A DNA stretch of 64,000 nucleotides from Shigella phage Shfl2: the sequence record HM035025; one strand, 5' to 3'. A program made the translations under genes and the position numbers. Below the pieces are notes generated by a model. That model saw nothing but the letters and a program-made list of their open reading frames with translations, ran no database searches and had not been told where the DNA came from. Positions 15,759 through 23,128 of this stretch are shown here, one piece after another (the stretch's first letter is position 1; every line of letters begins with the position of its first letter).

Positions 15759-15762
15759 CAAT

Positions 15763-15793
15763 GGGGACCTTTCGGTCCCCATATTTTTATTTA
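15763..15793 (+). terminator. Rho-independent terminator after gene 54
   Basis: GGGGACC-UUUC-GGUCCCC hairpin followed by T-run. Confidence 0.6.
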
Positions 15794-16077
15794 CGGAATG
15801 AAATAAAAGCAGCAACTGAAGCAACTAAACTGTCTTCAATATAAACTTCAATTTTTACCGGAGCTTCTGACTCAAATTTACCTGTTACTACACCTTGGAA
15901 AATGCTTTCAGTCTGCTCTGGCTTTGAAAAATTTTCAGAAGGAAAAATTCCGAACTTTTTATCTGTTCCAAAAATTTTGATAAATTCATCATAAACTGCT
16001 TCATTAAAAGCATTATCAGCAGGAATAACGCCTTCAACTACAAGTTCTTGACCTAAAAAGCGCAAAGAAGATTTCAT
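15787..16077 (-). CDS. Hypothetical 96-aa protein downstream of alt paralogs
   Basis: ORF with SD GAGGAA, preceded by conserved early promoter. Confidence 0.55.
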   Translation of the reverse strand: MKSSLRFLGQELVVEGVIPADNAFNEAVYDEFIKIFGTDKKFGIFPSENFSKPEQTESIFQGVVTGKFESEAPVKIEVYIEDSLVASVAAFISFRK

Positions 16078-16084
16078 TTTGTGT

Positions 16085-16135
16085 TCCTCATGTTATGTCA
16101 GTAAAATTACTATAACACAACACGAGGGACTTGTA
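16085..16135 (-). promoter_or_regulatory. T4-type early promoter
   Basis: Minus strand GTTTAC (-35) and TGTGTTATAGTAAT extended -10; near-identical copy at 31945-31995. Confidence 0.5.
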
Positions 16136-16137
16136 AA

Positions 16138-18195
16138 CTACATCTTGAACTTTTTAGACATTCCGTTGATGTTAACCAAAGAAGCCAAGATTTGAGAAAC
16201 TTCGTTTTCCTCTTCTTTTGATTCTTCTACAAGGAATTGATTAAACCCAGCCATTGGACGAACTTCACCAGTTTCCATCAGATGATCGCCATCATATACC
16301 GATTCTTCTAATTGTTCAGAAGGAGGAACGATTGTGCCTTCGATTAGATACTTGTTATAAGCAGTTTCTTTCATCATGTACGTGCTTACTTTATTAATCT
16401 TCAACAAAATTCCACGCGGTAAAATAACTTCAGCTTCTGATGGAAATCCTGATAAATGACCTGGAACGATAACTTTGATTCGCTCAGCCCCTTTAATTAC
16501 CATACCTACGCTAGTTTCAGCATCTTCATTAGCATATGCAGAATGACTACCCATATGCATTAAATCTTCAGCATCAACGGAACCTTCTCCTTCACCAGAA
16601 AATACTGCACCGGAATCATCTAGAGCCATATAGTTTTTACCATGCTCACCGAAGATATTTGGTTTAAGCGATGTTGATACGAAGTTCTTGAAATAGAACA
16701 TTTTATTTTCAATATTATGACGTAAAGTTTTAAAGGTAACTTCTTGTCCACGGTAAAGTGTAGTTCCCGGAGGAAGAACTGATCCTTTGGCGAATGCAGA
16801 ATCCAGCGTCTCGATGTGTTTAATAGCTCGTTCCATGTATTCTTCACGGGTAGAATCTGGTTTACCCAAGAGGAACGAGTTCATTTCAACATATGAATCT
16901 GCACAATAATCTTCAATTACATCAGACTCAGCCTGAGTCAGTCCTTTTGGAGTTACTTCGGTGCTTGCGTATTCATATGCCTGAGCAGCAGATTCATTAA
17001 TCAATTTATAAATGCCATTCATGACAAATTGAATAATAGCTACCTTTTCGTCTGGCGTGGCTTTAGAACCTTTAACTAAATCATTGATAATTTTCTTAAT
17101 AATATCAAAGCTATTAGAAATATTAATGTCAGCGAGATCGCTCAAAATTTTATCGGTTTTATAATCAAAGAATTCTTTATTCTTTAAATATTCTTGAGAA
17201 CCTTGATATGTTATATCGCTCTGCAGCTTGATAGATGGATCACGTAAACGTGCATGGGCCAATGCAATATGATTTCGGAAGCTTTCTAGTTCATAATCAT
17301 TAGATTTAAAACGAGAAGCACTCCTCATACCACCGATAGCTCCTTTGCCGAAGTTTGAACCAATCTGAATAACGCCAGAGTTCATTGGTCCTTCTGCTTT
17401 ATATACCGGAACTTTAGATTCAAACTCTTGATATTTCTTAGCGGCGAAGCTATCACCCTGAAGTGAAGCATCGACAGTAGAATATTGAGCTTGTGCTGCT
17501 AATCGACGACTAATTTTAGTTTTCTGAATAACAGCTTGATCCGTGCGCTTATCATTTTCTAGAGCAATAGAAGCGGCAACAGCAACAGCTTTAGGAACAG
17601 CATTACCTGTTTTAACGTCTACATAAACATCACCAACCTTTGATTCAACTTTTGTGAATAACTCAGTTGAAATAGGAGGTACACCTGGAATGTCTTCTAA
17701 ATTAGCATTTTTACGATAAACCATAATATATGCATACTTTTTATCATAGTCCCAGATTTCCTTTAAAAGAACATATCGACCTGCTCCTTTAGTACGTACT
17801 AAACGGTCAGCAATAACTTGCATTTGACGAGCAGCGCCATTTGTTTTACTTTTTAGTACGCGGAATAGGCATGCGTCAATTTTATACTGTTTCATTGTTT
17901 GAAGAGCAGTATCAAAAACCGCATTAATGACACCAATTGGATTTCCACCCAAGTTTTTAAGTTTAACTAATGATAGTTTCTCATTAACACCTATCATTAC
18001 GATATGCATCATTTTATCGCCTGGCTTAACGTTTTTATTTGTATCACCGCCAGAGGTGTATGTACAAAATCTAAATCCAGGAAGCACACTTTCTTCACCG
18101 GCTTGAATAGCAAAAATTTGAGGTATTTTATGCTTAGGATTTAAGTTAACAACCGGCGCCGAAGCGCCGTCAAATAATTCTGTAATAAGTTCCAT
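16138..18195 (-). CDS. Alt-like ADP-ribosyltransferase paralog (685 aa)
   Basis: N-terminus MELITELFD as in packaged Alt; C-terminal R-S-E ART motifs (LYRGQ, FVSTSL, SEAEVILPRG). Confidence 0.8.
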   Translation of the reverse strand: MELITELFDGASAPVVNLNPKHKIPQIFAIQAGEESVLPGFRFCTYTSGGDTNKNVKPGDKMMHIVMIGVNEKLSLVKLKNLGGNPIGVINAVFDTALQTMKQYKIDACLFRVLKSKTNGAARQMQVIADRLVRTKGAGRYVLLKEIWDYDKKYAYIMVYRKNANLEDIPGVPPISTELFTKVESKVGDVYVDVKTGNAVPKAVAVAASIALENDKRTDQAVIQKTKISRRLAAQAQYSTVDASLQGDSFAAKKYQEFESKVPVYKAEGPMNSGVIQIGSNFGKGAIGGMRSASRFKSNDYELESFRNHIALAHARLRDPSIKLQSDITYQGSQEYLKNKEFFDYKTDKILSDLADINISNSFDIIKKIINDLVKGSKATPDEKVAIIQFVMNGIYKLINESAAQAYEYASTEVTPKGLTQAESDVIEDYCADSYVEMNSFLLGKPDSTREEYMERAIKHIETLDSAFAKGSVLPPGTTLYRGQEVTFKTLRHNIENKMFYFKNFVSTSLKPNIFGEHGKNYMALDDSGAVFSGEGEGSVDAEDLMHMGSHSAYANEDAETSVGMVIKGAERIKVIVPGHLSGFPSEAEVILPRGILLKINKVSTYMMKETAYNKYLIEGTIVPPSEQLEESVYDGDHLMETGEVRPMAGFNQFLVEESKEEENEVSQILASLVNINGMSKKFKM

Positions 18196-18198
18196 GAT

Positions 18199-20295
18199 TT
18201 ATCCTTGAACGAACTTGTAAGGCATGTTTGCAATATCTATGCAAGACGCAATAATTCCAAGAGATGATTCTACTTTTTGTTTAACATTTGATGAAACAAA
18301 TGATGCAAAGTCAACTCTGTCTTCTATTTCAATATCACCTGTCATTGCAACTACTTCACCAGTTTCCATTAGACGGTCACCGTCATAAATTACCGATTCG
18401 GTGAGTTCTTCGGTGGTCATAACTTCAGCTTGAATGAGTTTTGTATTATTAGACGTGGTTCCGTCATTATTAGAAGCATCAGTTATTTTATTAACTTTGA
18501 CCATCAATCCACGTGGTAGAATAACTTCAGCTTCTGTTGCTATTCCGAGACTTCCTGGATATATAACATTAACTTTATGAGCTCCATCAATTGCCCATCC
18601 TATTTGAACTTTAACGTATTCAGGATTTTCTTTATACGCTCTTATTTCGTTTGGATTAATAGTTATTCCTTCTTCATTTTTATCAACTGTCAATTCATTA
18701 CGAGCTTCTGGTTCTAAAAGACCAATACCAGCATGTGTAATTCCAAAACGTCCAAAAATGATAGGAGTTAAAGAAGTAGATACAAAATTTCTGAAATAGA
18801 ACACTTTATTTTTAACTAGTGCTTCGTATATAGGAGCAGTCATGCTTTGAGCACGATAAACTGTAATGCCTTCTGGTATACGGTCACCATTTTCAAAAGC
18901 TGAATCTAAGTTATTTATAGCAGATTCAATTTCTTTTTCACTCATTACATCATATCGTTCTGGATTGTAACGACCCAAAAGAAGATTATTGATGTCAGTA
19001 TATCCTGAACCACAATACTCTCTAATGCCGCGCTTTTGTGATGGAGTATATTTAGAACCATCACGGGCAATAGTAATATCAATCATTGGACCTGCACCAA
19101 TTCCAGAAAAACTATAAATCATTCGTTTGAGGAATTTAGTTTTTGCTGCGTTCCAGGAATTTTTAGTTATTTCTTCCCAGACTTCATCTGGCTGCCCTTT
19201 ACGAGTTTTATTATGTTTATCAAGCCATTTATCTTTGTATTCTTCAAAGAATTTATTAACAGCTGCTGCGTATTTCTCTAAACATTTTATTGAAGTAGTT
19301 GGTTCATTTTTAATCGCATTAAGAATTACATCTTTAATTTTTTCAGAAACTTCATTAACCTCACTTTTTGAAAAGAATTTATAGTCATAATGAAGTTCAT
19401 CTGCAGTTCCTTCAGCAATAATTTTTGCTGCTTTAGTTTTAGAAGCTAATGAATTAATTCCAAGCTTCATTTCTTCTGCTTCGGGAATTAAAGGAGCGGT
19501 AGCAGGTTTATTGAAATTAGCTGCGGTAGATTCATACTTCTGGAATAATTCACTTTCAAATCTAGAAGATTCCAATGATTGACTTTGCGCAATTGCTCTA
19601 CGGGAAATTTTAACTTTAACGATTACAGCTTGGTCAGAACGCTTATCATTTTCTTGCGCAATAGATGCTGCAATTGCCTCATTTTTAGTTACTTGGGCTC
19701 CAGTATCTTTATTGATATAAACATCACCGACTTTCGATTCAACTTTAGTAAAGAGCTCGGTACTAATTTCCGGAACTCCTGGAATGTCTTCTAGTGATAC
19801 ATTTTTGCGATGTATAAGAATATATGCATACTTTTTATCATAATCCCAGAGTTCCTTAAGAAGGACGTATCTGCCACCTGAACGACTACGGATAAGTCTA
19901 TCAGCAATAACTTGAATTTGTCGAGCTTGACCAGCAGTTTTAGACTTAAGAATACGGAGCATACAGGCATCAATTTTATACTGACGCATAGTTTGCATTG
20001 CAACAGTAAAAACTGAATTGATATAATTAATTGGGCTTGGACCAAGACCTTTCAATTTAGCAATTGAACCTTTAGCAGTTAATGTAAAAGGAACAATATG
20101 CATCATTTTATCGCCCATTTTTAAATCGCGATTAGTATCACCTCCAGATGTATAGGTACATAAACGAAAGCCTGGTTGTTCAATTGCGTCATCAACATGA
20201 ACTGAAAAAATTTGTGGTATTTTCTTCTTTGGATTTAAGTTTGTAATCGGAAGAGTAGTATCTTCGTCAAATAATTCTGTAATGAGTTCCATCAT
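18199..20295 (-). CDS. alt: Alt ADP-ribosyltransferase (698 aa), packaged internal head protein
   Basis: N-terminus MMELITELFD; ART motifs VYRAQ, FVSTSL, TEAEVILPRG; adjacent to gene 30 side. Confidence 0.75.
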   Translation of the reverse strand: MMELITELFDEDTTLPITNLNPKKKIPQIFSVHVDDAIEQPGFRLCTYTSGGDTNRDLKMGDKMMHIVPFTLTAKGSIAKLKGLGPSPINYINSVFTVAMQTMRQYKIDACMLRILKSKTAGQARQIQVIADRLIRSRSGGRYVLLKELWDYDKKYAYILIHRKNVSLEDIPGVPEISTELFTKVESKVGDVYINKDTGAQVTKNEAIAASIAQENDKRSDQAVIVKVKISRRAIAQSQSLESSRFESELFQKYESTAANFNKPATAPLIPEAEEMKLGINSLASKTKAAKIIAEGTADELHYDYKFFSKSEVNEVSEKIKDVILNAIKNEPTTSIKCLEKYAAAVNKFFEEYKDKWLDKHNKTRKGQPDEVWEEITKNSWNAAKTKFLKRMIYSFSGIGAGPMIDITIARDGSKYTPSQKRGIREYCGSGYTDINNLLLGRYNPERYDVMSEKEIESAINNLDSAFENGDRIPEGITVYRAQSMTAPIYEALVKNKVFYFRNFVSTSLTPIIFGRFGITHAGIGLLEPEARNELTVDKNEEGITINPNEIRAYKENPEYVKVQIGWAIDGAHKVNVIYPGSLGIATEAEVILPRGLMVKVNKITDASNNDGTTSNNTKLIQAEVMTTEELTESVIYDGDRLMETGEVVAMTGDIEIEDRVDFASFVSSNVKQKVESSLGIIASCIDIANMPYKFVQG

Positions 20296-20328
20296 ATCCT
20301 CTCTAGTGTTTATTCTATTTATAAAATT

Positions 20329-20346
20329 AAAGGCCCGAAGGCCTTT
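20329..20346 (-). terminator. Intercistronic hairpin/terminator between gene 30 operon and alt
   Basis: GGCC-UUCG-GGCC hairpin followed on minus strand by T-rich tract. Confidence 0.4.
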
Positions 20347-20533
20347 AGTAATCTAGTGGTAAGAGAGTACGATATATTTCAAACTTTGGTCCTTTTTCAT
20401 AGGCATCAAATGTTTCTGTAAATTTATTATAAGCGTATGCATCTACAAATTCGAGAATGACTTGTGATACAGAAGTAGAAACATCTCCACCTTCTTTTTG
20501 AGCAATGACAATTGTTTCTAAGTAAGCTTTCAT
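20345..20533 (-). CDS. Hypothetical 62-aa protein downstream of gene 30
   Basis: ORF start overlaps gene 30 stop. Confidence 0.5.
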   Translation of the reverse strand: MKAYLETIVIAQKEGGDVSTSVSQVILEFVDAYAYNKFTETFDAYEKGPKFEIYRTLLPLDY

Positions 20534-21993: not shown

Positions 21994-22259
21994 TGTTCAT
22001 CCTTTAGAGTTTGGTTTACAGCTCTATTATAAATCAATTCATCATTAAGCTCAGGCAAAGACTTATGATATGTAGTTCTAACTTTATTTCCTTGCATCCA
22101 GTGCTTGACGTAAATGAAACCTTGCTCTACACATTTTTTAAAAATTCGTTCGTCTTTTTGAGCTCGGAATTCTGGATTGCATCTAAAAAATTGATTTACG
22201 TGACCGTAATCACGTGTAGTATTACCTTCATTTTCATAAATAGTGTGAACAACAAACAT
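21990..22259 (-). CDS. Hypothetical 89-aa protein (30.x region)
   Basis: ORF coupled to gene 30 start. Confidence 0.55.
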   Translation of the reverse strand: MFVVHTIYENEGNTTRDYGHVNQFFRCNPEFRAQKDERIFKKCVEQGFIYVKHWMQGNKVRTTYHKSLPELNDELIYNRAVNQTLKDEQ

Positions 22260-23128
22260 TAGAATGCTCCTTGGAAAATATTATCACCACTACCACTAGT
22301 AAGTCTATTAAAATACCCTGCATCACCAGGCTTAGTATAACTCCACGTATGAAATGGATTCATATGATACGGGTGTGTATAATATGGATTATATGGATGT
22401 GTATAATATGGATTATACGGATTAAATCCAGGAGTTCTCCAGGTAGTGTTCCAACGAAAAGAATCGTTTTTAACCATCTTCTCAATTACATCTTTTATAG
22501 CTTTTTCACTATCAAAACTTTCTTTATTTTCCTTCGGTGAAAAAAGCTTATTTTCTACATCATTCCATGTATAAACTCGCTGCGCAGTTTTTGGAATATT
22601 GTCACGCTCTCCTCGAGCCATCCAATAAACAGGAACATTTAATATTTCACTCGCATGATCGCAGTGGTAAGCAAGATCGTCAATGTAACAAATTACGTTA
22701 TATTTCTCTTTTGCCTTTTTGAACAACTCTTCTTTTGAAGAATCATGACCACACATCATTACTTCTGAGAAGGCACCAGGAAAAAGAGCATTCAAATTAA
22801 ATTGACGATTCAACAGAGCGTCAATAGAATCACCCAATGCTGTAACAGCTACAAAATTATAATCTTCTTTTAATTTGTTAATTACACACAGTGCATCTTT
22901 ATATGGAGACAAATAACGAATAAAATCTGATCGATTATATTTTTCAATTAACTTGACACCAAGTTCTTCATCACAATTAAAGAGTTTACCCGGAGAAATA
23001 AATTTCTCATCTTGGATCATTTTTAAAATATGTTCTAACGGAAGATTATATTTCTGAGCAAAATAAGGAAGGCCTGATTGCCAGCTTAAACATACTCCAT
23101 CAATATCAGTCAAAATAGTAGGCTTCAT
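22259..23128 (-). CDS. HAD-superfamily phosphatase-like protein with C-terminal NPYYTHPY repeats
   Basis: 289 aa; N-terminal LTDIDGV (HAD motif I DxDG[TV]); tandem 24-nt coding repeat near C-terminus. Confidence 0.6.
   Translation of the reverse strand: MKPTILTDIDGVCLSWQSGLPYFAQKYNLPLEHILKMIQDEKFISPGKLFNCDEELGVKLIEKYNRSDFIRYLSPYKDALCVINKLKEDYNFVAVTALGDSIDALLNRQFNLNALFPGAFSEVMMCGHDSSKEELFKKAKEKYNVICYIDDLAYHCDHASEILNVPVYWMARGERDNIPKTAQRVYTWNDVENKLFSPKENKESFDSEKAIKDVIEKMVKNDSFRWNTTWRTPGFNPYNPYYTHPYNPYYTHPYHMNPFHTWSYTKPGDAGYFNRLTSGSGDNIFQGAF
22384..22427. repeat. Direct tandem repeat (about 20 nt core, 24-nt period, 2 copies) inside the HAD-like gene
   Basis: TGTGTATAATATGGATTATA occurs twice 24 nt apart; encodes NPYYTHPY x2 on the minus strand. 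Confidence 0.6.

Follow-up and report, generated by a model that had tools for sequence, protein, structure and literature searches.

Two intact Alt-type ADP-ribosyltransferase genes at the alt locus of Shigella phage Shfl2, and the remnant of the second gene in T4

The alt gene of phage T4 encodes an injected NAD+:arginine mono-ADP-ribosyltransferase (gpalt, NP_049811). In Shigella phage Shfl2 (sequence record HM035025), of which a stretch of 64,000 nucleotides (nt), here called the window, was analysed, two adjacent open reading frames (ORFs) of the minus strand encode Alt-like proteins. This locus raises the question of whether the second gene is an enzyme with a role of its own, a spare copy, or a duplicate in decay, and of what has become of it in T4. 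A first-pass annotation of the sequence had described the two ORFs as tandem Alt-like paralogs of 685 and 698 amino acids (aa), and both were found where it had placed them. We propose, with rather high confidence, that they represent the complete two-gene alt locus of Tequatrovirus, with two intact and catalytically equipped enzymes that would be made late, packaged, trimmed by the protease gp21, and injected, and that likely have different targets. The pair is real, functional, and already known, since its genes are 98–99% identical to genes annotated as Alt-like in public records. This work makes small additions: it shows exactly what the T4 remnant is, that a C-terminal cleavage site is kept in both copies, and that natural hybrid genes exist.

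The window belongs to a T4-like phage, an ordinary Tequatrovirus: its first 25 kb are 97.5% identical to Citrobacter phage CrRp10, and hundreds more records match the same region at 95–99%. Genes 29, 48, and 54 are on the plus strand; alt.-3, the 685-aa ORF, the 698-aa ORF, alt.1, and the DNA ligase gene follow on the minus strand, which is the gene order of the T4 alt region. Both Alt genes are located between gene 30/alt.1 and alt.-3/gene 54 and have a late promoter in front, as expected of the T4 Alt family. For the upstream gene, the open frame does extend one codon past position 20292 to an ATG at 20295, as the length of 698 aa implies. The second ATG, at 20292, has the better spacing to a GAGG ribosome-binding site, yields the MELITE start of T4 Alt, and is the one annotated in T2, ime09, Shigella phage A2, and vB_SsoM_113. 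Translation most probably begins there, and the length of the protein is most likely 697 aa and not 698.

The products of the two ORFs present 42% identity over their full length (BLASTP, E = 2e-163), a match far beyond chance, which confirms that they are paralogs. In the numbering of the 685-aa protein, this identity is 67% in the N-terminal domain (residues 7–235), 15% in the helical middle region (residues 236–415), 32% in the ADP-ribosyltransferase (ART) domain (residues 416–628), and 38% in the C-terminal tail (residues 632–685). The least similar stretch of the catalytic domain runs from the STS to the ExE motif. The N-terminal thirds had been called near-identical in the first-pass annotation; they are conserved, but not to that degree. 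The strong divergence that it described for the central and C-terminal regions agrees with the values for the middle and the ART domain, and all the motifs that it quoted are present in the two proteins. Its suggested alignment to T4 Alt gave 70% identity for the upstream protein and 42% overall for the 685-aa protein.

Both proteins have the same four parts: a six-residue propeptide (MELITE), an N-terminal domain of ~230 aa, a helical middle of ~180 aa, and an R-S-ExE ART domain followed by a C-terminal propeptide of 54–65 aa. Their scores for PF03496 (ADPrib_exo_Tox) are far over the gathering cut-off of 23.4 bits (Table 1). The N-terminal domain was assigned to PF26846 (Tevenvirinae_ADPRT) through precomputed cluster representatives and not by scoring the window proteins themselves; these representatives are P0001, 99% identical to the 685-aa protein, and P0093 (697 aa), 98–100% identical to alt in each domain. 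The same family was found on the hybrid in contig L011, described below. Pfam gave only PF03496, plus PF26846, and no MuF domain in either protein.

The upstream gene is the alt ortholog. In comparison with T4 alt (L001 5455–7503), its codons 1–240 present 96–99% nucleotide identity and essentially no amino-acid change (one substitution). The identity then falls abruptly, with sharp boundaries, to 43–79% in the middle and catalytic regions, and it returns to 91–98% in the last ~40 codons, where the proteins are ~90% identical. The N-terminal domain is thus essentially that of T4 Alt, and it is 100% identical to that of P0019 and P0020, two proteins taken as T4-type on account of their 96–97% mutual identity across the middle and ART domains. 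This mosaic structure relative to T4 suggests that cassettes may have been exchanged between phages. The Shfl2 gene shares with T4 alt the genomic slot, the domain order, the cleavage motifs, the R / S-T-S / E-x-E residues, and the late promoter, but its middle and catalytic cassette is of a different, T2 type.

The catalytic motifs are complete in both copies. Besides the initial MELITE, the 685-aa protein presents Y481-R482-G-Q, S507-T-S509, and E587-A-E589, and alt presents MELITE, Y479-R480-A-Q, S505-T-S507, and E587-A-E589 (697-aa numbering). In an alignment of the 685-aa protein with 16 homologs, at 42–90% identity, R482, S507, S509, E587, and E589 are invariant, and so are E6 and E631. 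The proposal of intact R-S-E motifs in both proteins is therefore upheld: the Arg, the Ser-x-Ser, and the Glu-x-Glu are kept, and the loss of any of them on alignment was looked for and not seen. A phmmer search of the PDB sequences with the 685-aa protein alone returned no match, so that a profile of 16 sequences and fold searches were needed. In the HMMER alignment to solved toxins, the Arg falls on the catalytic Arg of CdtA, BECa, and a C3-like enzyme, and the E-A-E falls on the ADP-ribosylating turn-turn (ARTT) motif, which is E-x-E in CdtA and BECa and Q-x-E in the C3-like toxin. The fold searches and the profile alignment both point to an ART fold with an NAD-binding core, of the R-S-E clade (C3/VIP2/iota/Vis). 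The E-x-E form of the motif goes with arginine-specific enzymes in this clade (see also PMC5512222). In T4 Alt, the mutation E577A of the ExE glutamate leaves no activity (PMC11404850). In the 682-aa RefSeq sequence of T4 Alt this motif is E574-M-E576 and residue 577 is a Val, a discrepancy that is probably a one-residue offset in numbering.

T4 Alt is cut by the prohead protease gp21 after ITE-6 and LTE-619, with removal of 63 C-terminal residues, as determined by mass spectrometry, and is present in ~40 copies per head (PMC5694885; PMC9026906). The N-terminal ITE of the Shfl2 proteins, which had been taken for a prohead-protease site, corresponds to the mapped site ITE-6 (PMC5694885). LTE-619 aligns with LTE-632 of the upstream copy and with LEE-631 of the downstream copy, and the conserved SV(I)YDGDxLMETGEV follows in both. 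As sequence motifs, the gp21 sites are kept at both ends of both copies, and both P1 glutamates are invariant. In the AlphaFold2 model of the 685-aa protein, the tail after LEE-631 is the only long stretch of low confidence, as expected of a removable propeptide.

The expression signals of the locus were read from the sequence. The T4-type late promoter motif TATAAATA, upstream of alt, was found 12 times in the whole window against 8.85 expected, a count not above chance, and the promoter call rests on its position before the gene of a late packaged protein. The second gene starts 3 nt past the alt stop, and its AGGA ribosome-binding site is inside the end of alt. Since there is one late promoter and no terminator-like site was seen between the two genes, they look like one late transcription unit. 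Another TATAAATA, at 18912–18919 inside alt, was considered as a promoter of the second gene; it is 717 nt upstream, with the motif count at chance, and was not relied on.

By analogy with T4 Alt, both proteins would be made late in infection and would enter the prohead core by means of the N-terminal module that they share. They would then be trimmed by gp21 at ITE-6 and at the L-x-E near residue 631, kept in the head, and injected with the DNA, and at the start of infection they would use NAD+ to mono-ADP-ribosylate arginines of host proteins. A different course may be imagined for the second copy, in which it acts, as an active enzyme or as a structural core component, only late in the producing cell or in the prohead core. 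Expression from a late promoter would suit such a role, and Alt has been described as a core protein besides its enzyme role (PMC11404850). We consider it improbable, because the second copy has both gp21 motifs and the N-terminal domain of a packaged protein, and because a purely structural role leaves the invariant catalytic residues unexplained.

The question of whether T4 has a second large copy, left open by the first-pass annotation, can be answered: T4 has only a deletion remnant. Its alt.-1 and alt.-2 begin with MELITELFDGASAPVV, which is the N-terminus of the 685-aa type, and they occupy the same position, with 97% nucleotide identity to the 5′ end of the 685-aa gene. Nucleotide comparison revealed two lesions. 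The first is a 1-nt deletion in an A-run, which causes a frameshift, and the second is a clean 1,699-bp deletion with its junction within the 9-bp direct repeat CTAAAAAGT. These two lesions indicate that alt.-1/alt.-2 are what is left of a complete second alt gene and not a partial duplication, in contrast to the T4 record, whose annotation has them arise from the first part of alt by an old duplication. As for a relation of the T4 frameshift to the contingency loci reported in phages, the preprint on those loci does not mention alt.

The frameshifted and deleted remnant of T4 could also be taken as a sign that the second copy is in general a duplicate becoming a pseudogene. For the copy in Shfl2 this is scarcely credible. 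Its ORF of 2,058 nt is intact in every two-copy locus examined, and 395 phage records, T2 among them, encode the 685-aa protein at ≥95% identity. An IMG/VR scan gave only five loci for an analysis of selection, and GenBank phage records were therefore added. Six or seven related phages, one of them T2, were compared with the window and with each other; the pairwise ratio of nonsynonymous to synonymous substitution rates (dN/dS) ranged from 0.024 to 0.075 for alt and from 0.035 to 0.086 for the second copy. The ratio of the proportions of nonsynonymous and synonymous differences (pN/pS) was, for alt and the second copy respectively, 0.015 and 0.017 in the N-terminal domain, 0.131 and 0.101 in the middle region, 0.033 and 0.039 in the ART domain, and 0.081 and 0.020 in the C-terminal propeptide. 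Both copies are under strong purifying selection in all four domains. On the basis of this selection, together with the invariant catalytic residues, we reject the readings of the second gene as a pseudogene or a dead enzyme.

The synonymous differences between the two copies are 0.43–0.70, near saturation, and no identical run is longer than 24 nt. It follows that the duplication is old and that the copies have not been homogenised, and recent gene conversion between them is rejected on the same values. These data also bear on the view that the second copy is simply redundant, that is, more injected dose or a backup for the same host proteins, chiefly the alpha subunit of RNA polymerase. The copies are alike in architecture, ExE motif, and promoter, and T4, ECML-134, and PST tolerate the loss or fusion of one of them. 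However, their ART domains and middles are only 32% and 15% identical, yet each type is kept at 98–99% across hundreds of phages, with dN/dS near 0.04. Simple dosage does not predict two long-diverged forms side by side, with no sign of gene conversion. Redundancy is plausible, but it is a poor fit to the long-term keeping of two diverged forms, and we regard it as rather unlikely.

The 4.9-kb locus is covered over ≥80% of its length in 341 phage records, nearly all at 95–99% identity, so that the pair is present in at least 341 records, with the typical annotation "Alt-like RNA polymerase ADP-ribosyltransferase (x2)". In a metagenome protein collection, the 90%-identity cluster of the 685-aa protein has 772 members. 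In view of these counts, and of the alt duplications already noted in T4-like phages by Nolan et al. (2006), the two-gene state is common and T4 is the exception. Aeromonas phage avDM10-HWA (H62) presents four separate places matching Alt; arrays of several Alt copies are therefore not confined to Tequatrovirus.

Natural hybrids of the two genes were also found. The metagenomic proteins P0005 and P0007 have an alt-type N-terminal domain (93–98%) joined to the middle, catalytic, and C-terminal parts of the second-copy type (98–100%), through single and clean crossovers at residues 174–192 in P0005 and 218–224 in P0007. In the 65-kb contig L011 (5001–7055), the hybrid is the sole Alt gene between alt.1 and alt.-3, and a further natural hybrid is located in L012 (5001–7061). 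The isolate ECML-134, whose genome is complete, likewise has the hybrid (L013 1501–3561) as its sole Alt gene, and vB_EcoM_SCS4 and Yersinia phage PST have one matching place each per whole record. An assembly artefact in the Logan contigs was considered as the origin of the hybrids and is rejected, since the same hybrids are the sole Alt in complete isolate genomes. The locus thus occurs in three states: the tandem pair, in the majority of cases; alt with a remnant, exemplified by T4; and a single hybrid.

As seen in the hybrids, one N-terminal domain can replace the other: phages in which that of the packaged Alt is joined to the second-copy body are viable. The hybrids lend indirect support to the second copy being itself a head-delivered enzyme. 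They also speak against the role confined to the producing cell or prohead core, since the single Alt of these viable phages is a protein in which the second-copy body functions after the N-terminal domain of the packaged copy.

Regarding their targets, Arg265 of the RNA polymerase alpha subunit is a target of T4 Alt. The two copies differ strongly in the middle and catalytic regions, and hundreds of phages conserve each type; this suggests that the two enzymes may have different, possibly overlapping, sets of targets. Going further, it is possible, although we hold this only tentatively, that the 685-aa paralog is injected as a second effector and has a task of its own. Its host target might then lie outside RNA polymerase, for instance in an anti-phage defence or in part of a toxin-antitoxin system, or its chemistry might be another one, like the RNA attachment of ModB. 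As part of this tentative proposal, the alt locus would be a cassette system, in which a constant N-terminal packaging module and a C-terminal propeptide surround exchangeable target-recognition and catalytic bodies that recombine within and between phages.

Some points weigh against our proposal of two packaged and injected enzymes with likely different targets. Sequence divergence alone is no proof of different targets, and Depping et al. in 2005 reportedly found that many proteins are substrates of T4 Alt itself. For the second copy, packaging, cleavage, injection, and activity all rest on the analogy with T4 Alt. Under laboratory conditions, at least, phages can do without the second copy, since T4 has lost it and ECML-134, SCS4, and PST have a single hybrid. 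In the structure model of the second paralog, built on only 16 sequences, its N-terminal domain gave no confident fold match. Our literature search found no experimental study, virion proteomics, or enzymology of the 685-aa paralog, and no virion proteomics of any two-copy phage.

Second Alt-like genes are annotated in T2 (PV958097 CDS0266), ime09 (alt.-2), and vB_SsoM_113 (alt_2), and these are orthologs of the 685-aa gene, with 98–99% protein identity, that already bear the name Alt-like RNA polymerase ADP-ribosyltransferase. An analogous alt duplication is represented by ORF187c of the Aeromonas phage 44RR (Nolan et al. 2006). With the R-S-E toxins C3, VIP2, iota, CDTa, and Vis, the phage proteins have in common the catalytic fold and the arrangement of motifs, but they add a phage-specific N-terminal domain, the helical middle, and two propeptides predicted to be removed by protease. 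Delivery also differs, being through the phage head for Alt and through secretion or a binary partner for the toxins. Unlike the MuF-fused effectors delivered from phage heads, the proteins of the window have no MuF domain. ModA and ModB of T4 are small (~200 aa), early, non-packaged proteins that consist of the ART domain only (PMC5512222), in contrast to the 685 and 697 aa, the packaging-type N-terminal domain, the propeptides, and the late promoter of the proteins described here.

The features of the locus are listed in Table 1. The neighbouring alt.-3 is outside the late alt unit, because it has its own promoter of the sigma-70/T4-early type. In T4, mutations that lengthen the C-terminus of Alt.-3 lead to escape from the CmdTAC defence system (PMC11618068). 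On the other side of the locus, alt.1 (62 aa, 20345–20533, minus strand) presents a full-length match to the Pfam family PF24647, "Phage blade protein" (E = 1.9e-29). The homolog of T4 30.2 (22259–23128, minus strand) is, at 289 aa, longer than the 278-aa product of the 837-nt T4 coding sequence (CDS), and a tandem peptide repeat, NPYNPYYTHPYNPYYTHPY, near its C-terminus may explain the extra length.

Table 1. Features of the Shfl2 alt locus, in positions of the window. Residue numbers are those of the 697-aa (alt) and 685-aa (second paralog) proteins; pLDDT, predicted local distance difference test.
Feature	Position	Strand	Basis
alt ortholog (T2-type Alt), 697 aa + stop	18199..20292	-	70% identity to T4 Alt; PF03496, 128.8 bits; 2,094-nt CDS annotated in relatives
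alt N-terminal propeptide MELITE, predicted gp21 cleavage after Glu6	20275..20292	-	ITE-6 site of T4 Alt
alt conserved N-terminal domain, residues 7–236, PF26846	19585..20274	-	96–99% nucleotide identity to T4; P0093
alt variable helical middle, residues 237–412	19057..19584	-	34% to T4-type Alts, 15% to second copy
alt ART domain, residues 413–630	18403..19056	-	Pfam, toxin alignment, invariant residues
alt catalytic codon R480	18853..18855	-	
alt catalytic codons S505/S507	18778..18780, 18772..18774	-	
alt catalytic codons E587/E589	18532..18534, 18526..18528	-	
alt predicted C-terminal propeptide, residues 633–697, after LTE-632	18202..18396	-	Context identical to T4 LTE-619
Second Alt paralog, 685 aa + stop (2,058 nt); alt_2 or alt.-2 in some records	16138..18195	-	Paralogy; PF03496, 72.8 bits
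Second paralog propeptide MELITE, predicted gp21 cleavage after Glu6	18178..18195	-	Glu6 invariant in 16 homologs
Second paralog N-terminal domain, residues 7–235, PF26846	17491..18177	-	67% to alt; P0001; pN/pS 0.017
Second paralog variable helical middle, residues 236–415	16951..17490	-	All-helical in AlphaFold2 model; 15% to alt; pN/pS 0.10
Second paralog ART domain, residues 416–628	16312..16950	-	Pfam, 72.8 bits; invariant residues; fold matches; alignment to C3-like and BECa toxins
Second paralog catalytic codon R482	16750..16752	-	
Second paralog catalytic codons S507/S509	16675..16677, 16669..16671	-	
Second paralog catalytic codons E587/E589	16435..16437, 16429..16431	-	
Second paralog predicted C-terminal propeptide, residues 632–685, after LEE-631	16141..16302	-	Aligned with T4 LTE-619; Glu631 invariant; pLDDT < 50 over 629–685
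Left copy of 9-bp repeat CTAAAAAGT, marks T4 deletion junction	17848..17856	-	Nucleotide comparison with T4
Right copy of 9-bp repeat CTAAAAAGT; 1,699 bp between copies missing from T4	16149..16157	-	Nucleotide comparison with T4
Putative T4-type late promoter TATAAATA, ~20 nt upstream of alt start	20316..20323	-	Sequence motif and position
Terminator-like hairpin after alt.1, directly upstream of alt late promoter	20328..20347	-	8-bp stem, 4 GC pairs, T-rich tail
Sigma-70/T4-early-like promoter for alt.-3 (TTTACA, 17-nt spacer, TATAGT, with TG), directly after second paralog stop	16109..16137	-	Sequence read
alt.-3, 96 aa, DUF5498; neighbour, not an ADP-ribosyltransferase	15787..16077	-	ORF list, Pfam, T4 gene order
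Bidirectional terminator hairpin between alt.-3 and gene 54	15761..15782	.	Hairpin search

The current understanding of the Alt family is not changed by these results, and the public annotation of the pair is already correct. The targets of the second enzyme are a real but modest question. Nearly all experiments on Alt have been done in T4, which has an atypical and degraded version of the locus. Most sequenced relatives, including T2, have two long-diverged Alt genes and would inject two enzymes, if both are packaged. When host takeover by T4 is extrapolated to T2-like phages or to therapeutic Tequatroviruses, a second ADP-ribosyltransferase, probably delivered at time zero, should then be taken into account.

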